Shown here piece after piece: positions 10,131 to 59,597 of a stretch of 64,000 bases of DNA; positions within the stretch are counted from its first letter, which is position 1; each line of letters begins with the position of its first letter. A program made the translations under genes and the position numbers. The notes beneath the pieces are model-generated. The model ran no database searches and was not told the origin of the DNA. It saw nothing but the letters and a program-made list of their open reading frames with translations. The stretch comes from Clostridia bacterium (GTDB taxonomy: Bacteria > Bacillota > Clostridia > CAKSNL01 > HGM11501). Location of the stretch: assembly GCA_900766735.1 (NCBI GenBank), contig CAAFWO010000040.1:7896-71895 (forward strand). Reading direction: 5' to 3'.

Positions 10131-10780
10131 GCGTTTTAAATGTAAACCCCACCAGAATGGAGCTCACGAACCTTAAAAAGAAGCTCGCCGTCGCGAGAAA
10201 GGGCCATAAGCTCCTTAAGGATAAGCGCGACGAGATGATGCGACGGTTTTTGGATATTGTAAAAGAAAACCGTTCGCTTCGCGACGAAGTGGAACACGAG
10301 CTTCTCTCTGCGGAAAAAAAGATTATGCTCGCAAAGGCCGTGATGGGTGAAAAGACGCTCACATCGTCGCTCATGCTTCCGAAAAGCCGCGCGGCATTGG
10401 CTCTCGGCGAAAAGAATATTATGAGCGTTCCGATTCCGGAGTTTCGCCTTTTGGATAAGGGCGAAAACGTTCTGCCATACGGCTTTGCAACAACGGCCGG
10501 TGAGCTTGACGAGGGTATTTTTGCCCTTGAGGATACTATGCCGAAACTTATCAAGCTCGCGGAATCCGAAAACGCGATCGAGCTTCTCGCATCGGAAATC
10601 GAGAAGACAAGGCGCAGAGTTAACGCCTTGGAGCATGTCATGATACCGAATTATGAGGACACGATAAAGTATATCACGATGAAGCTTGACGAAAACGAGC
10701 GCTCGAATACGGCGCGGCTCATGAAGGTCAAGGATATGATGATCGAAGAAACAATTGAAGAAAAACGCGCAGCTCAGTAA
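10127..10780 (+). CDS. ntpD: V/A-type ATPase subunit D (central stalk)
   Basis: 217 aa, N-terminus [20 protein letters not shown] conserved in subunit D. Confidence 0.9.
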
Positions 10781-10785
10781 GTGCG

Positions 10786-10817
10786 AAAAAAACTCTGTAA
10801 TCATTACAGAGTTTTTT
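10786..10817 (+). terminator. rho-independent terminator of the V-ATPase operon
   Basis: CTCTGTA-ATCAT-TACAGAG hairpin flanked by A6 and T6. Confidence 0.75.
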
Positions 10818-10930
10818 ATGTTTTAAATTATGCAAAAAATCAATTTTGTGCTAAATCTTGACAAAGTTTACCATGGATGCTACAATAATTACAGTCGATC
10901 TTTGATTGGCTGCGATTGTGAAAAGCTTAG

Positions 10931-11098
10931 AATGGTCAAGGGTACAAGGATAACAACGGAAATATATGGAAAAAAGATCAGCTTCATAAAGATCATTGGG
11001 ATATAACCGACAGGCATGGCAATAAGATTAGAGAGGTGGATTTTAACGGAAATGAAATTTGGCCAAATGGACCTAAAAACAAAAATAAGTTGCCGTAA
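10931..11098 (+). pseudogene. start-less 3' remnant of a polymorphic-toxin C-terminal domain (…YKDNNGNIWKKDQLHKDHWDITDRHGNKIREVDFNGNEIWPNGPKNKNKLP*)
   Basis: 56 in-frame codons with no start (stop at 10928-30 immediately upstream); His/Asp-rich DHWD…HGN motif reminiscent of HNH/His-Me-finger type toxin tails; sits at the left edge of the AT-rich island directly before a small ORF. Confidence 0.4.
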
Positions 11099-11124
11099 CT
11101 TATATATGAAAGCGGGTGAATAAG

Positions 11125-11685
11125 ATGAGGGTTGTTGATGGTCCGAAGTTGGAGAGAATAAAGGCAAATAACGGTTTTTTTGATTTTGATAAATTAGAAT
11201 CTGATTACGGTTTGAAGAGCAGGATAGAATTTGATAATTCGAAAAAAAGCGTGACATATTCGGACATACAATTCGGAGTAAGCGCAATAGAGGTTGATGA
11301 AAGAGCAAAATGCCTTAAATACATAGTGAAAGAACTGCTTGCACTATTTGGATGCAATGGGGTTATTTCAAGGTATAATGAAAAATGGGTTTTAAACCGG
11401 CTTAAATCTAAATCGTTATATGATTGTTTTAAAAAACAAAGGCTCTCAATTTGTTTCGACGGAGGAATTTTGATTCCGGATGACTATGTGGCAATGTTGA
11501 TTATTGATTCAATTTTAAAATATAATTGCTTTGCTTTATTCATACTCGAAAATTGCGTTTTGGCTCCGACCGATCACATGGATATATTCATATGGTATAC
11601 TGATGAAAGTAAACAAAAAAAGATTAATGATATTATTTGTGACCTTAATCGAGATGATCTGATAGTCGTTACTGAACAAAAATAA
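11125..11685 (+). CDS. hypothetical protein (candidate immunity protein for the upstream toxin remnant)
   Basis: ~186 aa ORF (track ORF 11116..11685; first ATG at 11125), AT-rich, starts 27 nt after the toxin-tail stop. Confidence 0.45.
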   Translation: MRVVDGPKLERIKANNGFFDFDKLESDYGLKSRIEFDNSKKSVTYSDIQFGVSAIEVDERAKCLKYIVKELLALFGCNGVISRYNEKWVLNRLKSKSLYDCFKKQRLSICFDGGILIPDDYVAMLIIDSILKYNCFALFILENCVLAPTDHMDIFIWYTDESKQKKINDIICDLNRDDLIVVTEQK

Positions 11686-11720
11686 TATTATAAAGGGGCT
11701 GATAGGGTGGCGGTGATTAA

Positions 11721-12227
11721 TTGCATAAAAGATATTTTATTTCAAAATATAATCCAATGTTGTGGTCTAAAGAAGGGATATACCTTGGAGACGAATGGAC
11801 AAGCATAGGGGATTTAAGGAAAACAGGGAAATCGCTTATCAACGATCAAGAATATTTGGGCGTTGAACAAAGGTATATAGATTGTGTTTTGTATTTAATG
11901 AACAAAAGTAATATAGATTTTTTATATATTGCTGATTTGGCAATGTCTGGTATATCAGATGATGTGCGAATACATAATTTATATGATCATAACACAATGA
12001 ATTTTTACAATAAAATCGCTGAAGGAATGAGGGTGGATTCGGGTAACATTAAATATGTAATGAGGCTCATGTTGCGTTGTAATATTGATTGCCGCTTGTA
12101 TTCACGCAAAAAGCATTTCATTGTAATTGTATCAGACGAAATGTATATGCATGTTATATGCGCACGGTTGTTTGACACAGATATAAAAAAGGTTGAAAGC
12201 CTGGGACTATTTGTTCTCAATGAGTAA
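11721..12227 (+). CDS. hypothetical protein, paralog A of tandem pair
   Basis: 168 aa; shares motifs with next ORF: W-T-x-I-x-D-[IL]-x-[RK]-T, EYLM, [KR][IL]AEG..VD..I..V..LMLR..I.CRLY[SA]R..HFI, HI[I]C. Confidence 0.55.
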   Translation: MHKRYFISKYNPMLWSKEGIYLGDEWTSIGDLRKTGKSLINDQEYLGVEQRYIDCVLYLMNKSNIDFLYIADLAMSGISDDVRIHNLYDHNTMNFYNKIAEGMRVDSGNIKYVMRLMLRCNIDCRLYSRKKHFIVIVSDEMYMHVICARLFDTDIKKVESLGLFVLNE

Positions 12228-12233
12228 AGAGAA

Positions 12234-12725
12234 ATGAAAATGAACTATAAGAAGTATATCTTATCCCGCAATGGTTTGGAACATAATGATAATTGGACTG
12301 AAATAAGTGATATCGGAAGAACATTTGGCGGCGAAGTATTGACAGATGAGATCTATAGCAAGGGAGAGGATTGCTATGTGAGAGCTATGGAATATTTGAT
12401 GGAAGTCAACGGTATCCATTCATTACGCATAGGCGAACTTAGTAAGTTTGATAATGATTATGAAGAAAAATACAACTCACTTTACAGTGAAAGTATATTA
12501 TCGTTAAAAATGAGGCTGGCAGAAGGGTATGAGGTTGACAAAAAGTATATCGGAGATGTGGTAAAATTAATGCTACGCGGCGATATATGGTGCAGGCTGT
12601 ATGCACGTAATGCTCACTTTATTGCTGATGTTGGATACGATTTTTCTATACATATAATATGTAAAAAAATGAAAAAAAGAGAATTCAAAAATATTCAGGC
12701 TATTATGTCAAAATCCATAAAATGA
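12234..12725 (+). CDS. hypothetical protein, paralog B of tandem pair
   Basis: 163 aa; collinear similarity to 11721..12227 over the whole length. Confidence 0.55.
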   Translation: MKMNYKKYILSRNGLEHNDNWTEISDIGRTFGGEVLTDEIYSKGEDCYVRAMEYLMEVNGIHSLRIGELSKFDNDYEEKYNSLYSESILSLKMRLAEGYEVDKKYIGDVVKLMLRGDIWCRLYARNAHFIADVGYDFSIHIICKKMKKREFKNIQAIMSKSIK

Positions 12726-12768
12726 AACGTGATATTAAATACTAACATTGTCGGGATAAAGGCTTGAA

Positions 12769-13203
12769 ATGAATATGCGTGGGAGAAGGTGGCAAAATAA
12801 GATGATAGAGAGGCATGAGATGGTTATTAGAGTATTGCCGATCGTTATGCTATGCATAATTTTTTGTGGTTTAATTGTTTGTTCTACGAAATTAAAAAAC
12901 AAAAACACAAATGATATAAAAATTGGTAAAAATATAACTATTGAAATTCTAGATGGAGAAAACGTGAGCGCGGATTATCTTAGAAATATTTTAAAAGGAA
13001 CAACAGTTGAATCGAATCCATTTTTTATAATGATGGATGACAAAGATCTTGAAAGGTTAATTGAATATATGGAGGAAAATAAGTATAAAATAGGGGCTGG
13101 GACATATACGATTAACCAAGGTTGGAGATTTGATAATGGGGAGTTTGTTACATGGAGTGGGGAAAAAAGAAAAATTTTTGTCTTTGAAAAGGCTATTGGT
13201 TAA
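12769..13203 (+). CDS. hypothetical N-terminally membrane-anchored small protein
   Basis: 144 aa; one TM helix (VLPIVMLCIIFCGLIVC) then hydrophilic domain; start may be an internal Met. Confidence 0.4.
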   Translation: MNMRGRRWQNKMIERHEMVIRVLPIVMLCIIFCGLIVCSTKLKNKNTNDIKIGKNITIEILDGENVSADYLRNILKGTTVESNPFFIMMDDKDLERLIEYMEENKYKIGAGTYTINQGWRFDNGEFVTWSGEKRKIFVFEKAIG

Positions 13204-13230
13204 TAAAAATCTAAATCATTCAAATAAAAG

Positions 13231-13246
13231 AGATAACGGAGAGTTA
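13231..13246 (+). repeat. 16-bp direct repeat AGATAACGGAGAGTTA (copy 1), cassette-junction motif
   Basis: identical 16-mer also at 13886-13901; both immediately 3' of a small membrane-anchored ORF and preceded by an A-run. Confidence 0.7.
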
Positions 13247-13318
13247 TACTATTAATCTTGAACGCTCTATCAAAAAACATATGATGAAATCAGTTTTATC
13301 AGTGATCGGAGAAGAAAA

Positions 13319-13870
13319 ATGATAAGAAATGTTAAGAAAGCAATTGGTATTATCATTATTTTGTGCAGTATAGTTTTAGCTTATATTATACTCCCTTGGG
13401 CAGGAATGTTTCTTGAAATGGTTTTGATGCCAAATCCTCAAAAACCACAAATTACATATGGAGAATTTCCTTTTAGGTTAGTGTATGAAATAGATAATAA
13501 AACAATTGTAGTGGAAGACACATTAATATGTGAATATGATGGGTATGCCGCGGATACAGCAAGCGGAAAATATCGAACGTGGAAATCTCATTTAAGAAGT
13601 GGAAACGCACATATTACATTGTTTAAGAATGAAAATTTAGAAATTTTTTACACACCTGATGTTAATCAGCACGCGGCTGGAGTGTATATGGGAGACACAG
13701 AAATTTATAGCAGTATAAATGAGGCTTTCCCTAATGCATGGCAAACCTACATTTTTAATGACAGGCAATCAAGCGCATATATAATATCCGCAGATGATAT
13801 GTGGGAAAAGTATAAGTTGCGTTTAATCAGTTGGGAAATTGCTCCGCCGATAGAGAATAACTTCAAATAA
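13319..13870 (+). CDS. hypothetical N-terminally membrane-anchored protein
   Basis: 183 aa; TM helix AIGIIIILCSIVLAYIILPWAGMFL then soluble domain. Confidence 0.45.
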   Translation: MIRNVKKAIGIIIILCSIVLAYIILPWAGMFLEMVLMPNPQKPQITYGEFPFRLVYEIDNKTIVVEDTLICEYDGYAADTASGKYRTWKSHLRSGNAHITLFKNENLEIFYTPDVNQHAAGVYMGDTEIYSSINEAFPNAWQTYIFNDRQSSAYIISADDMWEKYKLRLISWEIAPPIENNFK

Positions 13871-13885
13871 AAGTTTCCACAAAAA

Positions 13886-13901
13886 AGATAACGGAGAGTT
13901 A
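13886..13901 (+). repeat. 16-bp direct repeat AGATAACGGAGAGTTA (copy 2) at the AT-rich/GC-rich junction preceding an RHS-core fragment
   Basis: identical to 13231-13246. Confidence 0.7.
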
Positions 13902-13922
13902 CAAATAAGAGAATGCCCTCCG

Positions 13923-14273
13923 GTGAGGTTTGATGAAAAGCCTCCCCGGAGGCGCAAAAGCACAATTGCAGGGAGCGAGCGCGTCGAGTTCGGTTATGAC
14001 AGCGCAGCTCTATTAACAAAAAAGGAAATATCGTCTAAACTCGGAATAGAAGCCATAACGGCGTATGAGTACGCCAAGAACGGAAACCTTAAGAAAAAAG
14101 TGGACTTTTACGGAATCCACTCAAAGACCGAGACATACACATACACCGCGTTCGGCGAGCTTAAAACTGCCGAGGGGAGGTACACTTGTCAACGGAAGCA
14201 ATGCCAGCACATATATGAAATAGTTAGGCTTAAGGGGAGGCACAATACCCAATTTAAAGATATCAAAATTTAG
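13923..14273 (+). pseudogene. RHS/YD-repeat core fragment (degenerate)
   Basis: GC-rich ~300 bp patch in AT-rich DNA encoding YD-repeat-like text (VEFGYDSAAL…AITAYEYAKNGNLKKKVDFYG…YTYTAFGELKTAEGRYT) then out-of-family tail; a +1 frame continues TLVNGSNASTYMK*. Confidence 0.5.
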
Positions 14274-14313
14274 CGAAATTTTCATGAATAACTCTTTTAC
14301 TTATAGCGGAGCC

Positions 14314-14329
14314 TATAACTCTCTGTTAA
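14314..14329 (-). repeat. inverted, one-mismatch copy of the 16-bp junction repeat (TTAACAGAGAGTTATA on minus strand)
   Basis: 14/15 identity to TAACGGAGAGTTATA in reverse complement; between RHS fragment and membrane ORF. Confidence 0.4.
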
Positions 14330-14332
14330 ATT

Positions 14333-14785
14333 ATGCATATTTGTATAATCGGAATAGCCCTTGGGCTCAACAGGCTTCCAAAGCTTCGTATGCGAATGCT
14401 GCAATTAGAAAGTGAGGGGCAAATGATGTATTATTTATTAAATTATGTTCCCAATATGCTCTATATATTAATTCTTGCTATACCTATAAAGGTAAATCCA
14501 GTTTTGTTTTTTATTATGTACCTATTTGTTCAACCAATATATTTGTTGATTGTTAATGTGCCGTTTGTTTGTAAAAAAACGACATCATATACTAAATGCA
14601 TTGTATGCATGGTTTCAACAATTATATTCAATGCGGTATTGACTATAGCCATTCATAAAATACGGACGGGATATTTTATAGGCGATGTACCGGAGGGATT
14701 ATATTATTTAATGGTAGGGATGCCGATTTTGATTATAGTTATCGGGTTAGGCATAATATGTTGCATAAGAAATAGAATGCTTTGA
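14333..14785 (+). CDS. small polytopic membrane protein (4 predicted TM helices), candidate immunity protein
   Basis: 150 aa, very hydrophobic (LYILILAIPIKVNPVLFFIMYLFVQPIYLLIV… LIIVIGLGIICCI). Confidence 0.45.
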   Translation: MHICIIGIALGLNRLPKLRMRMLQLESEGQMMYYLLNYVPNMLYILILAIPIKVNPVLFFIMYLFVQPIYLLIVNVPFVCKKTTSYTKCIVCMVSTIIFNAVLTIAIHKIRTGYFIGDVPEGLYYLMVGMPILIIVIGLGIICCIRNRML

Positions 14786-14810
14786 TGCTGTAACCAATCA
14801 GAAATATTCT

Positions 14811-15857
14811 TTGTTAAATATCGTCGGCGAAAGCGTTGACGGGGTGAACTATACATACTCAAGAGGGACGGACCTTTTGGGCTACACCTCAAGCCTTGGT
14901 GAAACGGTGTATTACCGCACGAACGTTCATGGGGACGTTAAGGAGCTTGTCAACGTTTTCGGGGAGAGTCTGGAGCGCTATGACTACAACGCATACGGTG
15001 CGGAGAATGAGGATTACAACCCTTTCCGCCGTATGTTTGGGAAAAAGAACGTGCATAATCCTTTCCGCTATACGGGAGAATATACCGACTCCGAAACGGG
15101 ACTTGTGTACCTTCGTAACCGAATGTACGACCCGGAAACGGGACGTTTCATAAGCGAGGACACACACTGGAACATTGACAACTGTATATACGGCGATGCC
15201 ATAGACGGCAACAGACCGACAACGCCTGACATCGGGGCAATTATCCAATCAAACAATCTATATGTATACTGCATGGGCAATCCTATCATGTATGTTGACT
15301 ATGAGGGAGAGTTTGTAATTTCCACAGCCTTAATCGTTGGAATTTCCATTGGAGCGTTGATAGGAGCTGGAATAGGCGCTTATGTTGGCTATCAAGTAGC
15401 GGAAAAAGTCGGAGTAGAGGAACCTGAACGATGGAAATTTGTTGTTGGATATGGGTTGGGAGGAGCATTAATTGGCGGTACTATTGGCGGGGTGATTGGA
15501 TATGGCATACATGCCGCAATAGGAGTAGCAGCTGGAAGTAGCGCAACGGCTGTATCAATCCAAAATGCAATATCTAATGTTGATGCATCAAGAATTAATC
15601 ACATATTAAATGGGTCTAAAGGAAACGATCATATGTGGGAAAAGCTTATGAATAAGGTTGATTGGAACGGCGTTAGATATTATATACAGGAGACAATGAA
15701 AACAGGTGAAACGATTTTGAAGAATAAATATGTAAACAACGATGTAACTACTATGGTCTATGAAACGGTACAAGAATATAACGGTGTAACTGTTAAGGTT
15801 ATTTATAATGTTATACATGGGATTGTCAATATAACCGATGCTTATGTGGTTTCATAA
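14811..15857 (+). CDS. 5'-truncated RHS/WapA-type toxin module: end of RHS core (RYTGEYTDSETGLVYLRNRMYDPETGRFISED…NLYVYCMGNPIMYVDYEGE) + glycine-zipper TM segment + ~110-aa C-terminal domain of unknown type
   Basis: TTG start assigned by ORF track; in-frame sequence continues upstream to a stop at 14766 (…TNQKYSLLNIVGESVDGVNYTYSRG), i.e. no N-terminal RHS body. Classic RHS core-end motifs are present. GxxxG-rich segment ALIVGISIGALIGAGIGAYVGY…GYGLGGALIGGTIGGVIGYG. C-terminal domain contains INHILNGSKGNDHMWEKLMNKVDWNG. Confidence 0.6.
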   Translation: MLNIVGESVDGVNYTYSRGTDLLGYTSSLGETVYYRTNVHGDVKELVNVFGESLERYDYNAYGAENEDYNPFRRMFGKKNVHNPFRYTGEYTDSETGLVYLRNRMYDPETGRFISEDTHWNIDNCIYGDAIDGNRPTTPDIGAIIQSNNLYVYCMGNPIMYVDYEGEFVISTALIVGISIGALIGAGIGAYVGYQVAEKVGVEEPERWKFVVGYGLGGALIGGTIGGVIGYGIHAAIGVAAGSSATAVSIQNAISNVDASRINHILNGSKGNDHMWEKLMNKVDWNGVRYYIQETMKTGETILKNKYVNNDVTTMVYETVQEYNGVTVKVIYNVIHGIVNITDAYVVS

Positions 15858-15934
15858 AAACGGAGGTGGCATGATAATTAACAGAGTAAGCATTTAATTA
15901 TATTGAGGATAAAGAACTATGGGAGGGAGTTACA

Positions 15935-16456
15935 ATGACTGATGTAAATAAAAACATCGAAAAGATCAGGCAAATCAAAAGTGAAAAAAAGCGGAACAGG
16001 GAGGCAATTTCATTTCTGTGTGACATTGTTGCAAGTCAAAATGACGATGAGCTTAAGAAAAGCTACGAGAATATAATTTATTTTAATATCGACATGTTCC
16101 TCGAAGCATTGGCAAGAAAGAATAAGGCTGATACAACTGAAATGGTGTTTTCAATGCTTGCACAGGAATTACTTAATGAATACACTAATTGGCTGTTTTG
16201 GAAGAGAAAAGAGTTAAATGCTGACAACATAGATGTCTGCATGTCCGTTGCACAGACGGTTTTTTATCTGTCATTTAAATACCGGGAAGTTGTAGATGTA
16301 ATGGAGTATGTATTAAAATCTCCTAATATAACACTGCGGCAAAGGCAGTCGGCATACGATTATCTTTGCTCGGACAATCCGGAAATTACGGGGTATCTCG
16401 GTGAAGAAAAAATTGAAAAATATAAAAAAGAGCGCCTTAAGTATGCCGGAAATTAA
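15935..16456 (+). CDS. hypothetical alpha-helical protein, candidate cognate immunity protein
   Basis: 173 aa ORF starting 78 nt after the toxin module stop, same strand. Confidence 0.45.
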   Translation: MTDVNKNIEKIRQIKSEKKRNREAISFLCDIVASQNDDELKKSYENIIYFNIDMFLEALARKNKADTTEMVFSMLAQELLNEYTNWLFWKRKELNADNIDVCMSVAQTVFYLSFKYREVVDVMEYVLKSPNITLRQRQSAYDYLCSDNPEITGYLGEEKIEKYKKERLKYAGN

Positions 16457-16665
16457 AAAGGCCGACGAACGGCTCGGTAACGTATTCGTACAACGCGGAC
16501 GGGACGGTGAAACAGTCGATCCGCACCAAACAGGGCAAAATCGTATACAGTGAGCGCTACGAGTACGACAAAAACGGCAACCGCGTGTTTTCCGAGGAAA
16601 ACGGTGAGATCAGAGACTACTGGTACGATGAGAACAACCGCCTTAAGAAAAAAACACCGCGATAG
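16441..16665 (+). pseudogene. start-less YD-repeat (RHS core) fragment
   Basis: frame-1 translation …VTYSYNADGTVKQSIRTKQGKIVYSERYEYDKNGNRVFSEENGEIRDYWYDENNRLKKKTPR*; GC-rich; no start codon after stop at 16438-40; the track ORF 16550..16741 is in a different, spurious frame. Confidence 0.6.
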
Positions 16666-16676
16666 CGGTGTTTTTC
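16654..16676. terminator. bidirectional hairpin terminator (ACACCGC-GATA-GCGGTGT) between YD fragment and recombinase gene
   Basis: 7-bp GC-rich stem flanked by A7 upstream and T4 downstream. Confidence 0.6.
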
Positions 16677-16680
16677 TGTA

Positions 16681-17724
16681 CTATTTTTCCGGAATCTCGC
16701 GGCTTCGCATGATCTCTTTTTTTGCTTTTGAGCTATACTGAGCATAGAATTTATGCGTGACCTCGATATTTTTATGCCCCATGAGCTCGGCAACCATTTT
16801 AATGTCCACGCCTTCCTCCAGGAGGGTGCACGCAAACGTTCTCCTAAGCGCGTGAGGACGTGTTTTATCCTTATTTGTGATTCCGGCGGCAAGGCAATAT
16901 GTTTTAAGATTATGCTCAACGCTTGAAATCGTGAGCCTGTCGCCGTTTCGTGAAACGAATAGGGCAGAGGTGTTATAATTTTGCTCTTTTCGCCATTCGA
17001 GATACTCCAAAAGCTCATTTTCGACCTGAACCGGCATAAAAATCTCGTCCTCATTTCCGCCTTTTCGGGTGACTGTGAACGACGATGTTTCAAAATCAAT
17101 GTCCGAAACGTCAAGATTTACCAGCTCAGAAACACGAACACCTGTTCCTAAATAGGTGAGATAGAGCGCAACATCGCGCTTTTTGCGGTTCAGATATTCT
17201 GTCAGAAGGCGACCCTTAAAGTATTTTTCGCCGTTTAGTATCACATCCATAAGCCGCATAGTCTCCTGGAGAGTGAGAGGCTTTTTGATCTTCTGAACAA
17301 GCTTATTCATATCAACTTTAAGTGTGATATTCTGCGAAATTTTGTCAGTCTTATAAAGATATGAAAAGAGACTCCTGAGTGACGACATTTTGCGGTTGAT
17401 GCCGAAAGAGGAATTTCTGTGCGTGCGGCTGTAGGGCTGGCCGTCAGCGTCCGTATATGTCAGCGTGTATTGCTTTAAGTATGATTTATATTCCAACAGA
17501 TCGTCAACGCTGATTTGCTCCATATCGTTTTCGGAAAATTCTTCAAGAGAGTCGTATGGGAATTTTTTTGTCACGAGCAGGAAGCTTAAAAATATTTTAA
17601 TGTCTAAAGCAAAGGCGAGCTGAGTGTTGACGGATTCACCGTCATAATAATAGTCGATAAACCTGAAAACAAAGTCAGGCAGTTCCGACAGATAATTTCT
17701 CAGTGTATTTTGCTTATCAGCCAT
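16681..17724 (-). CDS. tyrosine site-specific recombinase/integrase (XerC/XerD-like)
   Basis: 347 aa; C-terminal catalytic region with RPHALRRTFA…LMGH…Y signature (R-H-R-H/Y of tyrosine recombinases), N-terminal core-binding domain. Confidence 0.85.
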   Translation of the reverse strand: MADKQNTLRNYLSELPDFVFRFIDYYYDGESVNTQLAFALDIKIFLSFLLVTKKFPYDSLEEFSENDMEQISVDDLLEYKSYLKQYTLTYTDADGQPYSRTHRNSSFGINRKMSSLRSLFSYLYKTDKISQNITLKVDMNKLVQKIKKPLTLQETMRLMDVILNGEKYFKGRLLTEYLNRKKRDVALYLTYLGTGVRVSELVNLDVSDIDFETSSFTVTRKGGNEDEIFMPVQVENELLEYLEWRKEQNYNTSALFVSRNGDRLTISSVEHNLKTYCLAAGITNKDKTRPHALRRTFACTLLEEGVDIKMVAELMGHKNIEVTHKFYAQYSSKAKKEIMRSREIPEK

Positions 17725-17760
17725 AATATCCTCCGTACATTCAAAACGGGTGTTCCAATT

Positions 17761-17782
17761 CAGATAAATAGTTATTTATCTG
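17761..17782. repeat. perfect 10-bp inverted repeat CAGATAAATA-GT-TATTTATCTG upstream of recombinase gene
   Basis: palindrome 37 nt upstream of integrase start codon; between integrase and glycosidase gene end. Confidence 0.6.
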
Positions 17783-17823
17783 AAAATAATCACATTAAAC
17801 CCCGTATATTCCCCGGTTTGTTT

Positions 17824-19195
17824 TTAAATTTCCAAAGTAAGCTCTTTGTCTTTTTTTAGTGTGTAGTCTTTACCGTTAATGCTTAAAGTGCCGCTGCCTT
17901 TCGTCGCGGTAACAGAAAGCGAGTTCCCGTCAAGCTTAATTTTAACTTCTCCGCCCATGATCGGAACACTTCCTTCGATAAATCCGAATCCGCCAAGATG
18001 CGGCTTTACGCTGAAGGTTTCAAACCCCGGACTTGTCGGATAAACACCCATGAAAAATCTTCCCAGAAGATATATCGGCGCTGCTCCCCACGCGTGGCAG
18101 AGCGATTTATCGTATTTCTTTCCGTACATCGCATAATGCTCATCACCGGTAAGCGACGGGTCGAATTCCTCCCAGACTGTGGTCGCGCCTAGGTCGAACA
18201 TTCCCTTCCAGTATGTTCTGATCTTATTTTCGATAAAATCAAATTCCGAGAGCTTGCCCATCACCTCGAGCTCGTAACCCTCAAAATACGGGGTTGTGAT
18301 CTTTTCTATCTCGTCGTTAAACAAAACATTTTTACAGATGCTCTCCGCCTGCTCCTTTGACGCGATGTCATAAAGAATCGCGAAAATATTCGCGTGGCGC
18401 GTCACATTTCGTTTGCCGGACTCATAATTGTCGATATAGGCGCCCCTCTCTCCGTCCCAGAAAAATGCATTAACTTTTTCCTTGAGGATTTGGGCTTCTT
18501 TTTCGAATTTAGATTTGTCATCGCCGACAATTTCGGACAACTTTGCCATTGAGTTATTTGCCGCTATGTATAGCATCTGCTCAGCGCTGATGCAGGATTC
18601 GCCGGATTTATCGATATTTGCCCAGTCGATGAATATCCAGTCGCCCGGAACGCATTTTATAAAGCCTTCTCCGTTCACGCGTTTCCGGCAGAAATCCAGA
18701 AGCGACACAGCTTTCGGATATATGAATCTTATAAATTCATCGTCCTTATAAAACAGATAGTACTCATAGAGCCCGATTATCCAGAAAAGACTGTAATCGG
18801 CGATAGTGTTTATGTGTTCATAAACCGGTTCTTCCCCACGCAATGCAATTGTACTGCGCCTTATTATCTCCTTATCAAAGAAAAGGTAGTTGTTGAATTT
18901 ATACGCCTGGTACGCGTCGCCGCCCCAAAGCCAGCGGTCACGCTTAACAGCCTCTAACTGCACCTCGCGTGAGGTGAGCAAAAGCGTGTATGCGCACATA
19001 TCCCAAATCTTATTAACATCGTCCGAGTCCGAGTGAAACGAGCCCTTATATTCAAGCGGAAGGTACTCAAAATCGGCCGAAACTTTTAAATCCGAATGCG
19101 AGCCCGGAATGAAGATATAGCGAAAAGCGCGCGGACGCAGTCTATAGCTCGTTTTCCCTGAAATATCTCATAATCGCCGTAGTTCCACATCCAGT
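17824..19195 (-). pseudogene. six-hairpin glycoside hydrolase (alpha-L-rhamnosidase/GH78-like), N-terminus in a different frame
   Basis: 391-aa ORF 17824..18999 continues in-frame upstream to 19140 without a start (…IFIPGSHSDLKVSADFEYLPLEYKG…); a likely N-terminus (VTKAYWMWNYGDYEIFQG…) is in another frame at ~19195, frameshift ~19120-19170. Confidence 0.45.
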
Positions 19196-19304
19196 ACGCT
19201 TTTGTCACAAATGTTTCCCTCCGATATTTATACAAAGTTTTTCAAAAAAGAAATCTGCTTTAACAGCCATATCCAGCTGGACCAAAAATGCGCCTATATT
19301 CATT

Positions 19305-21014
19305 TTAAGCCTCCACTAAAGCTCTTAATTCGTTGATAAGTGCGGCAGAGATCTTTTCTGCCTGCGCCTTGGAATCCGCCTTTGCTCCGACATAAATTTT
19401 AAGCTTCGGTTCTGTTCCCGAAGGACGAAGAACCGCCCAAAGACCATCCTCGAGCTCAAAATAGAGCACATTGGATTTCGGAAGTGTCAACGGAGAAGTA
19501 TTGTTATTAACAAAATCTTTTCTGACTCTCTCGTCATAATCGCGAAGTGCCAGAACCTTAAATCCGGCCAGAACCGTGGGCGGATCGTGTCTTACTTTAG
19601 TCATCGAGGCCTTGATCTCGTCCGCACCCTTAAGCCCCTCTCTGACAATGTTATAAACGCCCTCTTTATGCCAGCCATATTTATTATAAAGGTCACAAAG
19701 CGCGTCATACAGTGTTTTGTTTTTAAGGCTGTAGAATGCCGCCATCTCGGCGATCAGCATCGATGCAACGACCCCGTCTTTATCACGGGCATGGATTCCG
19801 GCAAGGTAGCCATAGCTTTCCTCAAATCCGAAGACATAGTGCATATCGCCCTCTTCCTCGTTGCTCTTTATAAGCTCACCGATGTATTTGAATCCTGTCA
19901 GGCACTCAAACATCGCCACGTTATACGATTTACAGATATTTCTTATAATATCGGTCGTTACGATGGTTTTGACCACAAAGGGATTTTTGGGCATTGTGCC
20001 CTTCTCGGTGCGCTGTGAAAGAATGTATTCGCAAAGGAGCGCGCCGACCTGGTTGCCCGTCATCGTGACATATTCCCCGTCGGAATTTTTAACGACGATA
20101 CCCACTCTGTCACAATCGGGATCTGTTCCTAAAATCAGGTCAACATCAAGCTTTTTTGCCATTTCGATGCCGATCGTGAACCCTTCCTTGTCCTCCGGGT
20201 TGGGCGATTTGACCGTCGGAAAGTCACCGTCCGGAACGCACTGCTCTTTAACGGTGTAGACATTCTTAAGCCCGATCGCATTAAATGCCTTCATAACGGG
20301 CTTATAGCCTGTTCCGTGGAACGGAGTGTATATGATCTTGAAGTTATCTGCCGCCTCTTTGACCGCATCGGGATTGATCTGCTGGGTCAGCACAGCATTC
20401 AAAAATTCATTTTCAATATCTTCACCGATAAGCGAGATGAGCCCTTCGTTGACCGGCGCATCAAACTCCTCGAAAAGAGGCATTGACTTTATAATGTTAA
20501 CGATACTGTCTGCCGTCTCGGGCCCGATCTGGCAACCGTCGTCGCCATATACCTTATAGCCGTTATATTTTGCCGGGTTGTGGCTTGCGGTGACCATGAT
20601 GCCGGCAGAACACTTTAAGTATCTCGTCGCGAAGCTGACCTCCGGAACGGGTTTAAGCTCTTCGAAAAGATAGACCTTGATGCCGTATCTTGTGAGCGTT
20701 TCCGCCGCTTCTTTAGCAAAAACATCGGACTTATGGCGCGAGTCATAGCCGATCACAACGCTCGGGTTCTCGATTTTTTCAGAAAGCAGATGCTTTGCAA
20801 GTGCCTTTGTTGCTCTCCTCACAACATAGATATTCATTCTGTTTGTACCCGCGGCAATGATTCCGCGAAGACCGGCCGTTCCGAACGCAAGCTCGGCGCC
20901 GAACCTTTCTTTTATCTCGGTGTCATCGCCTTTTATCGCTTCAAGCTCGCTCCGAAGTTCGGGGTCGAGCTCTTTATAGTTAAGCCATTCGTTATACTTA
21001 TCAATGTAGGTCAT
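19305..21014 (-). CDS. phosphoglucomutase/phosphomannomutase (alpha-D-phosphohexomutase family)
   Basis: 569 aa; active-site TASHNP, metal-binding GTDPDCDR, sugar-binding GFEESYG. Confidence 0.9.
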   Translation of the reverse strand: MTYIDKYNEWLNYKELDPELRSELEAIKGDDTEIKERFGAELAFGTAGLRGIIAAGTNRMNIYVVRRATKALAKHLLSEKIENPSVVIGYDSRHKSDVFAKEAAETLTRYGIKVYLFEELKPVPEVSFATRYLKCSAGIMVTASHNPAKYNGYKVYGDDGCQIGPETADSIVNIIKSMPLFEEFDAPVNEGLISLIGEDIENEFLNAVLTQQINPDAVKEAADNFKIIYTPFHGTGYKPVMKAFNAIGLKNVYTVKEQCVPDGDFPTVKSPNPEDKEGFTIGIEMAKKLDVDLILGTDPDCDRVGIVVKNSDGEYVTMTGNQVGALLCEYILSQRTEKGTMPKNPFVVKTIVTTDIIRNICKSYNVAMFECLTGFKYIGELIKSNEEEGDMHYVFGFEESYGYLAGIHARDKDGVVASMLIAEMAAFYSLKNKTLYDALCDLYNKYGWHKEGVYNIVREGLKGADEIKASMTKVRHDPPTVLAGFKVLALRDYDERVRKDFVNNNTSPLTLPKSNVLYFELEDGLWAVLRPSGTEPKLKIYVGAKADSKAQAEKISAALINELRALVEA

Positions 21015-56091: not shown

Positions 56092-56124
56092 AAAAAAGAG
56101 CTGAGCATTGCTCAACTCTTTTTG
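56092..56124. terminator. bidirectional hairpin terminator overlapping the stop of the GLUG-protein gene
   Basis: AGAGCTGAGC-ATT-GCTCAACTCT flanked by A7/T5. Confidence 0.6.
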
Positions 56125-59100
56125 CGTTTATGTTTTTTAACTAAAGTTACTGTCACGAATACTGCCGCCGCCAGAATGAGGACGATCACAGCCGCCGTGA
56201 TGCATTTTGACAAAAGCGCCGATTCATATCTCACCGCGATCGTGACCTCGGGACTGTCAACAGTGAACTTGACATATTTTCCCCTGTTTGAGGATTTGAT
56301 CTTCTCCCACTTGCCGCCGTTTTTATAAAAGACGGTCGCCTTGTCTTTGTTCTCGTTAATTATCCTGAACTTATATTCTCCGTCCTCGGGAACGGAAGCG
56401 CCCATAAGCTTAATGCTGTAGACCTCTGTCTCGCCGACTGCGCCGCCGGGACCTTCCTCATTTAACTCGCTCGCTCGTAACAGGGTATCTGAGGTGAACT
56501 CGCCTTCTGCAAGGGCAATTGCAAGCTTTCCGGTGTTGTTTCTCTCCTCGCTCTCCAAAAGCGTTACCCAGTTATTATATTCAGCTTCGATCGAGAGATC
56601 GCTTGAAACCGTTCCCTCGCCGATGTCCTCCCACTCTCCGAAGCTTCCCTTCTTTTCGGGAACCTCCGGCATCTTGATCTTGCCGTACGGCTCGCCGTAT
56701 TTTATAAGCTCCTCAGCGACCTTTTCGCCGTCTGCATAGAACCTTGCATAGAAGCTGATAAATTCGGCCGGTACATTCATTTTTGAAAGCTCATCGTAAG
56801 TCGCCGGCTCAGCCTTTCCTTTATAGCTGATTCCGTCAAGTGCGCCGAGACCCTTATCCAGGTACTTGCAGTCCCTCACTATTTTCACGTTTTTCTTATC
56901 TCCGGCAATGCTTCCTGTGTATTCGTCACCGGTAACGTCCGCGATCGCATAGCATTCGCTGACAGAATCCGTGTAGCCGGCCACACCGCCGACGTATGAC
57001 GCGCCTTCGGCGTTGCACTTAGCATAATTTTTCTTGAGCACGGACTCTGAGTATCCGGCGATTCCGCCGACATATGAGCCGGACTCGCTTAACACGTCGG
57101 CATATCCCTCGCAGGAATATATAACGCCGAGGCTTAAGTTTCCGGCGATTCCGCCCATACAATTCTTTTTGCCGTCGATCTTTCCGCGGTTAACGCATTC
57201 AGATACAATGGCTTTTGTCTTATAGACAAAGTTTAAGTTTGACGGGCGCTTGAAATCGTCCTCCGGGTCGGAGGTGTACTCGATCGCGACAGCGCCGGCG
57301 ATTCCGCCTCCGTTTCTGTCCGCATTTATCTTGCCGGAATTTTCACACCTTGTGACTTTTCCGGATACGGCGCTCGATATTTCGGACTCCGAAACGTCGA
57401 CGAAGTAGTCGTCAATATCGAAATTGAGATATTTCTCTTCGTTTTCGGTGATCGAGTCGATTATAAGGTTCATTATGAGGTCGAACTGATCCGAAAGGTT
57501 CTGAACATCGTTTCTGATCGTCTTTCTGTCCTCTTTGAATTTATCCTTCATTTTTGAAAGCTCGTCGGAGATTCCGGTCAGCGTGTCAAAAAGTCCGTCT
57601 CCCTTTTCCTGAAATTCCGTGCCAAGCTTTTTAAGCTTCATCGGCCCTGCGTCCGCAATGTCTTTCGCAATGTCGGAAAGCTTCGAAAACGCGTCCGAAA
57701 GGTCTGAAAATGCATAGCTCATCGCATCGGAAGCTTTTTTAAGCTCTGCGTTTGCCGCGTTGAGCTGCTCGGTCATATCGTCGGCATAATCGCCGAGCTT
57801 TTTATGAAGCCCTGAAAGCGAGTCTGCCAATGAAGCGCACGCCTCCGACATGGCCTTAAACCCTGCCATCAGGCAGTCAAGTGAATCGTCAAGATAATCG
57901 GCCGCCTTTTCAAAATCGTCAAAATCGACTTCAGTATTGCTGATTATAGTATTTAAGCTTTCGCTCATGGCGTTTATCGCGTCCGCAACCGGCGAAAGAG
58001 CTTTGAGCATCCGGCCGAGTGCGTCGGTAATGCCCTCGATGTCCTTAATATCGCCCGATGAAATTATATCGCTTAACGTTTTTATTGCCTTATAGATCTG
58101 ATTGTGCGCCGAGAGAAGCTTTTCGATCGCGCTTTTAAGCTCGCTTGCCGCCTTTCTCACATCGCTCTTATTTTTTACCGTCACGGCGGAAGACAGGCGG
58201 CGCATTGCCTTCTGGGCATAGCTTGTCGCGCTCTTCAATTCCTTTGAACCGTCGGCAAGAGTCTTGAGTGCGTCAGTCATCAGGTCGATCTCCATATCGA
58301 TGTCCGGCGTGTAAAGATTGATTTTAGAAAGTGCCGCATTTAAGCTGTCGGAAGCCGAAACGAGCGAATCAGCCGAGGAGGAAACAAGATCTAAAACCTC
58401 AACGCTGTCGTCGATCGCCGTTGACAATATGGCAGAATAAGTGTTAAGCTCATCGATATTTGTATCGATAAAGTCATCCGTCATATCGAGCATATCCTTG
58501 GCATATCCGCGTGCGATGCCTGAATAATCCGAAATATTGTCAAGGTAAGCCTCGATATTGTCCGCCGCAGAATCCGAATCGTTTATAAGAGTGTCCGTCA
58601 TTTTGTTAAAGGTCTCAAGCTCGCGTTTAACCTTTTGAAGCGTGCTCTCCGAAACGTCCAAAAGCACATAAGGCTCTGCCTGACCGACGATTCCGCCGAC
58701 ATCCTTTCGACCCATGATCTCGCCGCTGTTCTTACAGCCCGTTAAAAGCCCGGACTGCCTTCCGGCGATACCGCCGACGTTATAGCCGACATGCTGATAG
58801 CCGACCGTGCCTTTGTTTTCACAGCCGGATATAACGCCCTTTGAAAGACCGACGATTCCGCCGATATCATAAAAGCTCTTAAGGAGCCCTTCTTCGGTTT
58901 TATCGTCTTTTTCTTTATTGATTTTTACGTTTTCAACGACGCTTTCAATATCCGTGTCAAGCACCGATGTGCTCTTTTTATCAGCCTCAACAGTGTTGAT
59001 GTTGCCGAGATTTTTGCTCGAAGCAATATATCCGTCGTTATATCCGGCGATACCGCCGACGGAATTCTCGCCGACAATGACGCCGTTAAACGTCGCGTCG

Positions 59101-59597
59101 ACCACTTTTGCGCTGTCCGTGCATTTTCCGGCGATTCCGCCGATCGCGGACGCGCCTTTCACCGTGCCGGAGTATGTCGATGAAATAATCTCGCCCGAGT
59201 TCACGCCGGCGATCCCGCCGATATAGCAGGCCGTGCCGCCCGGCGCGATATTTCCGGTTATATTAAGCTCCTTAACGACCGCGCCCTTTTCAAGATACCT
59301 GAAAAAGCCGAGGTTTGAACCGTTTTTCGAAATATTGACTCCGCTTATCGTGTGCCCGTTTCCCAAAAATGTGCCGGAAAATGTCGGTATCGGGGTAAAT
59401 TCATCACCCGAAAAGTCAATATCCGCGGTCAGGTTCACCGTCTTTCCGATTGACCAGGAATCAAGCGTGCATTTTTCCGCAAGCCTTAAAAATGCTGATT
59501 TGTCCGAAACCGTGATAATGTCTCCCTCGGCATATAAAGGAGTAGCCGAAAGCACAAATATTATCAAAAGTAATAAAGATATTATTTTTTTATACAT
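56112..59597 (-). CDS. large membrane-anchored surface protein: signal peptide, N-terminal GLUG-motif repeats, ~450-aa alpha-helical/coiled-coil region, second GLUG-repeat block, C-terminal TM anchor + basic tail
   Basis: 1161 aa. Repeated GGIAG-type units: IGGIAGVNSGEI, IGGIAGKCTD, VGGIAGYNDGYI, IGGIVGLSKGVI, VGGIAGRQSG, VGGIVGQ; later GGGIAGAV, MGGIAGNL, VGGIAGYSES, VGGVAGYTDS. Central low-complexity Ser/Asp/Leu/Lys-rich helical region. C-terminus ITAAVIVLILAAAVFVTVTLVKKHKRKKS. Confidence 0.7.
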   Translation of the reverse strand: MYKKIISLLLLIIFVLSATPLYAEGDIITVSDKSAFLRLAEKCTLDSWSIGKTVNLTADIDFSGDEFTPIPTFSGTFLGNGHTISGVNISKNGSNLGFFRYLEKGAVVKELNITGNIAPGGTACYIGGIAGVNSGEIISSTYSGTVKGASAIGGIAGKCTDSAKVVDATFNGVIVGENSVGGIAGYNDGYIASSKNLGNINTVEADKKSTSVLDTDIESVVENVKINKEKDDKTEEGLLKSFYDIGGIVGLSKGVISGCENKGTVGYQHVGYNVGGIAGRQSGLLTGCKNSGEIMGRKDVGGIVGQAEPYVLLDVSESTLQKVKRELETFNKMTDTLINDSDSAADNIEAYLDNISDYSGIARGYAKDMLDMTDDFIDTNIDELNTYSAILSTAIDDSVEVLDLVSSSADSLVSASDSLNAALSKINLYTPDIDMEIDLMTDALKTLADGSKELKSATSYAQKAMRRLSSAVTVKNKSDVRKAASELKSAIEKLLSAHNQIYKAIKTLSDIISSGDIKDIEGITDALGRMLKALSPVADAINAMSESLNTIISNTEVDFDDFEKAADYLDDSLDCLMAGFKAMSEACASLADSLSGLHKKLGDYADDMTEQLNAANAELKKASDAMSYAFSDLSDAFSKLSDIAKDIADAGPMKLKKLGTEFQEKGDGLFDTLTGISDELSKMKDKFKEDRKTIRNDVQNLSDQFDLIMNLIIDSITENEEKYLNFDIDDYFVDVSESEISSAVSGKVTRCENSGKINADRNGGGIAGAVAIEYTSDPEDDFKRPSNLNFVYKTKAIVSECVNRGKIDGKKNCMGGIAGNLSLGVIYSCEGYADVLSESGSYVGGIAGYSESVLKKNYAKCNAEGASYVGGVAGYTDSVSECYAIADVTGDEYTGSIAGDKKNVKIVRDCKYLDKGLGALDGISYKGKAEPATYDELSKMNVPAEFISFYARFYADGEKVAEELIKYGEPYGKIKMPEVPEKKGSFGEWEDIGEGTVSSDLSIEAEYNNWVTLLESEERNNTGKLAIALAEGEFTSDTLLRASELNEEGPGGAVGETEVYSIKLMGASVPEDGEYKFRIINENKDKATVFYKNGGKWEKIKSSNRGKYVKFTVDSPEVTIAVRYESALLSKCITAAVIVLILAAAVFVTVTLVKKHKRKKS

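Follow-up and report, generated by a model that had tools for sequence, protein, structure and literature searches.

A probable 'headless' orphan array of RHS toxin tips and immunity genes on the chromosome of an uncultured Clostridia species from the gut

Two kinds of described system come closest to the locus reported here. Classical orphan rhs arrays of C-terminal tips (CT) and immunity genes, known from Salmonella and Serratia and represented in this work by two contigs from other gut Clostridia (L024 and L096), consist of co-oriented modules, each comprising a core piece, a variable toxin and a small immunity gene; their cores are richer in G+C (GC) than the AT-rich tips, core segments are repeated and extra orphan copies of immunity genes are present. 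In rhs loci it is usual for tips and immunity genes to be low in GC and for the cores beside them to be GC-richer. The acquired interbacterial defence (AID) clusters of Bacteroidales, AID-1/2 and rAID-1, are low-GC runs of co-oriented short genes, toxin fragments and orphan immunity genes among them; they vary between gut strains, have a tyrosine recombinase gene next door and likely serve as defence against contact-dependent toxins (10.1101/471110). The published definition of rAID-1 comprises a XerD-like recombinase gene at the 5' end followed by at least two co-directional genes of GC <=41%, the recombinase being at least 44% identical to BF9343_RS08045 and its close homologues being restricted to the array context (10.1101/471110). 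Orphan immunity genes are thought to shape survival in contact-dependent warfare in the gut, although the evidence comes mostly from Bacteroidales and from type VI secretion systems (T6SS). For another toxin family, orphan immunity genes far outnumber toxin/immunity pairs in metagenome-assembled genomes (MAGs) of gut Bacillota, and because of that report the general phenomenon of an orphan-immunity excess is unsurprising here (PMC13556189). We describe a region at ~10.82-16.68 kb of a 64-kb window (the whole stretch of DNA analysed), a chromosome region from an uncultured human-gut Clostridia species, which is likely to be a decayed, 'headless', promoter-driven orphan RHS-CT/immunity array acting mainly as an immunity bank. 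The orphan-array kind is itself already known; what is new is a 'headless' array of RHS immunity genes and toxin tips in gut Clostridia. The locus offers a clear case, from uncultured gut Clostridia, of a chromosomal RHS-derived array in which often only immunity-like genes are left.

In the way it works, the array is like the classical orphan rhs-CT/immunity arrays, with which it has in common the modular order, the base composition, the repeated cores and the surplus immunity genes described above. It differs in that no full-length rhs gene is present at the locus in any of 13 contigs of the window species, in being bounded by a V-ATPase operon and a Xer-like gene, and in that its RHS pieces are out of order and many strains keep only immunity-like genes. 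Measured against a full-length RHS/YD-repeat toxin, the core that precedes the toxin is present, whereas the YD shell of ~1000 amino acids (aa) or more and the N-terminal secretion/trafficking domain are missing. The array probably also works like the Bacteroidales AID clusters, with which it shares low-GC, co-oriented short genes (toxin fragments and orphan immunity genes among them), variation between gut strains, a neighbouring tyrosine recombinase gene and a likely role in defence against contact-dependent toxins. Unlike them, it lies in Bacillota, it holds RHS toxins rather than T6SS effectors and nothing suggests that it sits on a mobile element. With respect to rAID-1 in particular, the GC of the array (0.36) is within the published limit, but the recombinase is convergent with the array at its 3' end, on the opposite strand, instead of standing at the 5' end, and it is a conserved core gene that also occurs where no array is present, homologues of 64-95% identity lacking one. 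Repeated intergenic recombination motifs (attC-like), as in rAID-1 or integrons, are absent from the array.

The block occupies 10826-16476 and has a GC of 0.360, against 0.465 and 0.467 in its flanks. Its left limit with respect to the sister species (L016) is the terminator hairpin of the V-ATPase operon (10787-10817, + strand; a perfect 15-bp stem followed by a T run), which is kept in that species while the DNA 3' of it is not. Directly 3' of this hairpin GC falls from 0.47-0.53 to 0.29-0.36, and the sharp drop reported there in a preliminary description of the sequence was thus seen again. The same description placed the end of the island and the recovery of GC at 17823-17824, where a glycosidase gene begins, and this did not hold: GC is back to 0.44-0.46 at 16.2-17.2 kb, ahead of that gene, and the variable block stops at 16477, not 17823. 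The intervening recombinase gene has a GC of 0.43 and is kept in nearly every strain together with the adjoining YD fragment, which only the short contig L029 lacks. The best sigma-70-like promoter in a scan of 10700-17900 lies at 10858-10886 (+; TTGACA, 17 nt, TACAAT, preceded by TG as in an extended -10 element), agrees with the consensus at 11 of 12 positions and is directed into the array, inside a left segment that is common to all strains and lineage-specific; it is the predicted promoter of the array. At the other end, a terminator-like hairpin (AAAAACACCGC-GATA-GCGGTGTTTTT, 16660-16678), still present in L029, is common to the array and the convergent recombinase gene and is probably a bidirectional terminator. 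On the minus strand, 16651-16797 weakly matches RsmY of Rfam (26.6 bits, E=0.002; gathering score 57); the match overlaps both this hairpin and the recombinase gene's 3' end, and most likely it is spurious.

Three GC-rich patches within the block had been described as RHS text, and comparison with P0014, a 554-aa RHS fragment of another strain, agreed with this. The first, at 13923-14190 (+), is a decayed YD-repeat shell fragment 70% identical to P0014 residues 117-178, which loses its frame after 'ELKTAEG' and matches TIGR01643 (YD_repeat) weakly; the last, at 16477-16665 (+), is a truncated shell fragment 98% identical to P0014 residues 27-84 and forms the fixed right end of the array; the third, treated below, is recognized by TIGR03696. 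P0014 and P0019 display the contiguous RHS C-terminus from which these fragments come, so that their order in the window can be read off: the middle piece (13923-14190) stands first, the shell end and core (from 14818) second and the most N-terminal piece (16477-16665) last. On sequence comparison, then, the fragments are pieces of one RHS C-terminal shell in scrambled order, and the array is derived from the 3' portion of an RHS locus, the long YD-repeat shell and N-terminal export region of which are lost.

One complete core-end/toxin/immunity module remains at 14811-16456, as the earlier reading of the sequence had it. Its first open reading frame (ORF; 14811-15857, +, 348 aa) comprises the shell end and core (14818-~15330), a glycine-zipper segment and an Ntox35-like domain (~15560-15857). 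The core is matched by TIGR03696 (Rhs_assc_core; E=4e-18, 65.7 bits against a cutoff of 32.5 bits), and in a Foldseek comparison of the AlphaFold2 model against the PDB the N-terminal part matches solved Rhs cores such as 8qja. The match to Ntox35 (PF15534; E=0.0023) covers positions 2-78 of the 78-position model at 19.0 bits, under the Pfam cutoff of 23.6 bits, and the homologues P0072, P0142 and P0143 have a precomputed PF15534 annotation. Within the toxin domain, the motifs HHI..KH.W and DAW are conserved. Residues 250-348 were modelled as helices plus a four-stranded sheet with a predicted local distance difference test score of 77-88, for which Foldseek gave no significant PDB fold match, the only hits being non-significant NTF2-like ones. 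The ORF begins inside the shell ('IVGESVDG') at a TTG (14811) with no GGAGG-like sequence 5' of it, and its product shows no signal peptide and no match to a secretion or trafficking domain. The RHS cocoon is out of reach for a 348-aa product with only a stub of the shell and no export domain. The gene that follows, o173 (15935-16456, +), has a strong Shine-Dalgarno sequence (GGGAGGGAG) 7 nt before its ATG. In L024 a protein 39% identical to the 348-aa ORF, toxin domain included (P0053), is directly followed by a 75%-identical o173 homologue, one of three copies on that contig (74, 75 and 92% identical in amino acids, and up to 96% in DNA). Because this adjacency of toxin and o173 is conserved across species, there is good evidence that o173 encodes the cognate immunity protein of the Ntox35-like toxin.

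The left edge of the array preserves a second module in part. A start-less toxin tail of 55 codons lies at 10922-11098 (+; frame 10931-11098, DNA homology beginning at 10922) and shares 96% identity with the C-terminal end of an RHS-core toxin of 425 aa from strain L005, in keeping with its earlier description; it is what remains of a module that lost its 5' part by deletion. Next to it, o189 (11116-11685, +; 186-189 aa) has its counterpart in L005, directly 3' of the undamaged 425-aa toxin gene; intact copies of 98-99% identity are present in L005 and L006, and full-length 189-aa copies also in L010 and L094, and it is the putative cognate immunity gene of the toxin whose tail lies 5'. The tandem paralogues o168 and o163 (11721-12227 and 12234-12725, both +) share 31% identity (E=1e-25); their counterparts in L005 stand directly 3' of an RHS-core protein of 424 aa that contains an Ntox21 domain (Pfam E=6.6e-26), and this makes o168/o163 candidate Ntox21 immunity proteins. 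Within the species, the pairing of one toxin with one immunity family recurs (F05 toxin then F04, F17 toxin then F02, Ntox21 toxin then o168/o163). The Ntox35-like toxin with o173, Ntox21 with o168 and o163, and the 425-aa toxin with o189 are accordingly offered as candidate toxin-immunity pairs of unannotated families.

The three other small genes are orphans with predicted transmembrane (TM) segments. An N-terminal TM segment is present in o144 (12769-13203, +), which has a Shine-Dalgarno sequence before an ATG at 12802, and in o183 (13319-13870, +), the product of which would be membrane-anchored; o150 (14333-14785, +) is polytopic, with several TM-like segments. The exact o183 protein was found only at the array locus of the window species, L007 holding a 33%-identical homologue, and the o150 gene lies against the left border in L003 and L004 and recurs in L094. 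No partner toxin was seen for o144, o183 or o150 in any strain compared at the locus, and to call them immunity genes is a guess. Ribosome-binding sites of the Shine-Dalgarno type precede o173, o183, o189 and o144; none precedes the RHS-core/toxin ORF. The preliminary description counted eight small ORFs of no recognizable family, a tandem paralogue pair and three membrane proteins among them, and asked for family searches. Scans against Pfam, NCBIfam, PADLOC, PHROGs and PDB sequences returned no match for the small ORFs, and both the paralogue pair and the membrane proteins stood. Seven of the eight ORFs, all on the + strand, remain; the other (10830-11006) overlaps the promoter-like site and, out of frame, the toxin tail, and is probably spurious.

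Comparison between strains gave fixed ends and a variable interior. The 13 contigs, all of the same species and from human-gut metagenome assemblies, were found by exact-protein look-up in public assemblies with V-ATPase D, the recombinase, o183 and P0014. All contigs that span the locus have the V-ATPase operon, the array, the recombinase gene (-) and a GH78-like gene in one order, with flanks 97-99% identical between strains. Conservation ends at window position 10931-10990 on the left and restarts at 16477 on the right; the fixed ends of the block are placed at 10922-10931 and 16477. Between these points the length of the array varies from 1.75 kb in L003 to over 9.8 kb in L005, and content differs in almost every strain, with more than 40 protein families and at least 10 arrangements among the 13 contigs. 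Toxin domains at the locus across strains comprise Ntox21, CDI_toxin_EC869_like, an SH3_3-containing tip, a DUF4347-like tip and an Ntox35-like tip, and L005 holds four copies of the core segment that are 94-95% identical. Of the left toxin tail, strains retain 0, 9, 43, 59 or all 168 nt; this junction is ancestral, the tail lengths being the pattern expected of nested deletions. On the right, an RHS shell repeat is cut at '...NRLKK' and abuts the terminator hairpin of the recombinase gene; this junction is the same everywhere but in L029, where a further deletion removed the right-hand YD fragment. Since the outer junctions are the same in nearly all strains, L029 excepted, the array is an old resident of the species. 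Four of the 10 distinct arrays (L002, L003, L007 and L008) have no intact RHS-core/toxin ORF, yet keep 3-5 intact small ORFs, which fits selection for immunity rather than for toxins. With different cassettes in sibling strains, scrambled shell pieces and the toxin-immunity pairing found in L024, the earlier proposal of orphan CT/immunity modules without a full-length rhs body was borne out. Such an array could be used as a strain marker.

Neither the sister species nor more distant relatives have the block; the comparison with siblings that had been called for found different cassettes at the same place in the window species and none of the block in L016. At the same intergenic site, L016 (11107-13191) has a DUF6273 membrane protein and an unrelated 277-aa tyrosine recombinase (integrase), with no RHS sequence. 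From these sequences, the site between the V-ATPase operon and the recombinase gene seems to be an insertion hot spot.

No full-length rhs gene was found at the array locus in any strain, nor anywhere in the 64-kb window, which has no RHS ORF other than those described. In every contig with a left flank, the V-ATPase D gene and its terminator stand directly 5' of the array, and no RHS ORF exceeds 348 aa in the window or 585 aa in any strain. An exhaustive HMMER search of 1.84e9 representative proteins gave, as the best full-length RHS proteins, matches of 40% identity (P0217, 1878 aa; P0218, 1652 aa), and among the matches listed all those above 85% identity are 405 aa or shorter. Two word-indexed searches gave, among the matches listed, only proteins of 585 aa or less, for which a bias of the tool is suspected; where checked, these matches came from the array locus itself or from orphan positions in other species. 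A classical rhs locus was found in another gut Clostridia contig (L024, 45-16758), where a 1929-aa RHS is followed by ~17 small genes. Its modules share 78-96% DNA identity with cassettes of the window species, which suggests cassette exchange between species, and a second shell type present in some strains (F17 of L078; P0002) is 75-83% identical to the C-terminus of its RHS. L024 seems to belong to a different, rarer species, because the cluster of a neighbouring gene is rare: the 90%-identity cluster of its solute-binding protein is seen on only 6 contigs, the next match being 78% identical, while for the V-ATPase D protein of the window species the collection lists 118 blocks. A second classical locus from gut Clostridia, L096, encodes an RHS longer than 2224 aa.

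These observations bear on an alternative that we regard as unlikely though not negligible, namely that the array is a silent reservoir of toxin tips for a full-length rhs gene elsewhere in the genome, into which tips are swapped by homologous recombination. Orphan tips of Salmonella have reportedly been swapped into the main rhs gene in this way, under experimental selection. Several strains do have intact core-plus-toxin ORFs with cognate immunity genes, the repeated cores (94-95% identical, four of them in L005) are good recombination substrates, and the second-type (type-B) orphans of some strains resemble the C-terminus of the 1929-aa RHS of L024 at the 75-83% identity given above. But no full-length RHS more than 40% identical to the shell and core of the first type (type A) was present among the 1.84e9 representative proteins, L024 probably represents another species, recombination with a distant locus would rearrange the chromosome, and 4 of the 10 arrays contain no intact tip to be donated.

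The gene that adjoins the array on the right (16681-17724, -, 347 aa) encodes a tyrosine recombinase (Pfam Phage_integrase, E=2e-32), so that this much of the preliminary description, in which a XerC/D-like recombinase closed the island, was upheld; that the gene is part of the island was not. Its best model match was NCBIfam XerS (E=3e-44), which spans residues 5-341 and positions 7-355 of the 360-position model at 151 bits, under the 267-bit cutoff, whilst the XerC and XerD models cover just the C-terminal two-thirds of the protein. The best PDB sequence matches were XerA and XerD, and the translation shows the catalytic motifs GVRVSEL, HALRRT and GHKNIEVTHKFY. A scan of species-representative genomes returned relatives in 8 related species at 64-95% identity. 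None of these has an RHS array, and all but the 64% homologue (L023) adjoin PGM; in L017, again without an array, the other neighbour is a 2-hydroxyacid dehydrogenase gene, which in the window lies upstream of the V-ATPase operon. Because relatives stand beside PGM without an array in related species, the recombinase is a vertically inherited core gene. Phage origin was also considered and rejected, as viral contigs held no close relative of the recombinase.

On the side of the recombinase gene that faces away from the array, 35 nt upstream of the start codon, lies a dif-like palindrome of 26 bp (TTCAGATAAA-TAGTTA-TTTATCTGAA, 17759-17784) with perfect 10-bp arms around a 6-bp centre. Seven species with 80-95% identical recombinases have it in nearly the same form, although the intergenic DNA about it has diverged; L019 and L020 show a mirror-symmetric double change, and in L023 another palindrome stands in its position. 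Each locus has the palindrome a single time. Over 1-17 kb both GC and AT skew are positive, over 18-64 kb both are negative, and the genes change orientation at 16.7 kb. XerS and XerH are single recombinases of ~355 aa with a dif site adjoining the gene (PMC5357621). The XerS/difSL modules of streptococci and lactococci and the XerH/difH modules of Campylobacterota, in which a single recombinase resolves chromosome dimers, resemble the present gene in recombinase size (~350 aa, with a full-length XerS model match), in the conserved inverted-repeat site that adjoins the gene and in the position at a GC/AT-skew sign change. They differ from it in that the recombinase described here scores below the XerS equivalog cutoff and belongs to Clostridia, and difSL has 31 bp with an 11-bp centre. 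From position, conservation and homology we infer that the recombinase is most likely a single-recombinase Xer enzyme (XerS/XerH-like) with an adjacent dif-like site at the replication terminus, and as such it would be what resolves the cell's own chromosome dimers. A possible XerS/XerH-like dif module in Clostridia would help to place replication termini in MAGs.

Taken with these neighbours, the array may be understood as follows. Transcription is predicted to run rightward from the sigma-70-type promoter 3' of the V-ATPase terminator to the hairpin at 16660-16678, and the small genes would be translated in preference to the RHS-toxin ORF. Since the small genes have ribosome-binding sites and the intact RHS-core/toxin ORF has none, the main product is likely to be a set of immunity proteins, by which the cell would be protected from RHS toxins delivered by related gut Clostridia. 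The attackers would be those that retain full-length RHS genes along with homologous toxin/immunity modules, and selection would act chiefly on immunity, as the 4 of 10 arrays without a toxin suggest. The remodelling seen between strains may come about through homologous recombination among the repeated shell and core segments and module remnants, through nested deletions and through exchange with other species; the pattern is plain from the contigs and the mechanism is what we infer from it.

Several points weigh against reading the locus as a promoter-driven immunity bank beside a Xer/dif module. The promoter is a consensus match only. Intact toxin domains occur in several strains and would be needless in a pure immunity bank, and for the partnerless o144, o183 and o150 the immunity label is only a guess. 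The DNA viewed comprised the 64-kb window and 20-kb loci, and there may be a full-length RHS elsewhere in the genome, in which case the array could be a tip reservoir as well. As regards the neighbour, the Xer/dif assignment draws on position, conservation and homology, with a XerS score of 151 bits below the curated cutoff of 267, and the sign change in skew was seen across only 64 kb.

A bolder version of the immunity-bank interpretation, which we think improbable, would make the array the Bacillota counterpart of the Bacteroidales AID clusters: a promoter-driven immunity bank anchored at the terminus, in which the cell's own RHS weapon is dispensable and turnover is driven by the proximity of Xer/dif, either by terminus-specific hyper-recombination or by occasional Xer activity on cryptic sites. 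If true, turnover driven in this manner would link chromosome-dimer resolution to the diversification of interbacterial defence.

The preliminary description also raised the possibility of a decayed integrative element that had carried a polymorphic-toxin locus, and in a more specific form this would be the remnant of a genomic island or of an integrative mobile element exploiting Xer (IMEX), which imported the locus and then decayed. We consider this improbable, and the description found weak support in what follows. The block has low GC and is missing in L016 and in distant relatives, the same site in L016 holds a different insert with its own 277-aa integrase, and the block lies within ~1.1 kb of the dif-like site. 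Low-GC tips and immunity genes beside GC-richer cores are nevertheless what rhs loci usually show, and the block contains no integrase, transfer, replication or other mobility genes and no att repeat, its ends having no direct repeats. An IMEX would be expected to have dif-like sites at its junctions, but there is a single palindrome per locus and a whole recombinase gene stands between it and the block. Neither the palindrome nor its half-sites were found inside the array or at its ends (10.8 and 16.7 kb), and dif-like sites in these positions were rejected. The outer junctions, finally, are the same in nearly all strains and cut RHS or toxin coding sequence, which points to deletions and not to site-specific integration.

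A recurring element within the array deserves separate treatment, as it has the appearance of a recombination site. The 24 nt AAAAGAGATAACGGAGAGTTATAA encode KRDNGEL and a stop codon, the end of the F02 immunity family (165-166 aa), and the intact F02 genes of L005 and L078 (165-166 aa) end in the same 24 nt. In the window, one such F02 3'-end remnant lies at 13226-13248 (+) as a direct repeat of 13881-13901, and a second, at 13881-13963 (+), is joined to a GC-rich intergenic hairpin (~13914-13956) and forms a 'leader' that recurs 5' of RHS fragments. An alignment of 10 copies showed a small hairpin together with a GC hairpin of 12 bp, in which some changes are compensatory, and the leader folds had z-scores of -3.4 to -5.8. 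The leader had no Rfam match. Scanning the metagenome collection with a degenerate leader motif gave 60 loci, of which 3 were real, all from the same species and locus, the others being chance matches; diverged copies exist in L024, where the element stands 3' of the immunity gene of the full-length RHS. As the leader consists of the coding 3' end of F02 and its downstream intergenic hairpin, it is inherited module sequence. A role as a recombination site or as a mobile or RNA element was ruled out on this account. A repeat search of 10.7-17.9 kb for integron- or rAID-like repeats returned only short, chance-sized families, and an array of the integron or rAID kind was set aside for want of anything larger.

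That the neighbouring recombinase services the island, capturing and shuffling cassettes at specific sites as in an integron or rAID-1, had been suggested from the sequence and is highly improbable: a tyrosine recombinase does abut a low-GC, co-oriented, strain-variable array, a structured element of a short hairpin plus a 12-bp GC hairpin does recur at module boundaries, and rAID-1 shows such systems to exist in gut bacteria (10.1101/471110), but the recombinase is conserved at 64-95% identity in 8 related species that have no RHS array, it is convergent with the array where rAID-1 needs a 5', co-directional gene, its palindrome lies on the far side of the gene and is absent from the array together with its half-sites, the element that recurs is an immunity gene's 3' end with its hairpin, and the junctions fall at many positions, some inside coding remnants.

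Two observations concern the remainder of the window. An ORF of 1161 aa at 56112-59597 (-), with no Pfam match at E<=1e-5, adjoins an MMPL-family transporter gene (59614-62094). The glycosidase gene beyond the recombinase, a GH78-like rhamnosidase gene, was present as previously noted but in the window strain is a 5'-truncated copy (391 aa against 655 aa). Window positions 19000-19305 are without stretches of ~575 nt and ~750 nt that are present in other strains (compare L002 16497-17072 and 17166-17916), and because these are missing the GH78-like gene is truncated at its 5' end and a gene for an AP_endonuc_2 (TIM-barrel) protein is gone.

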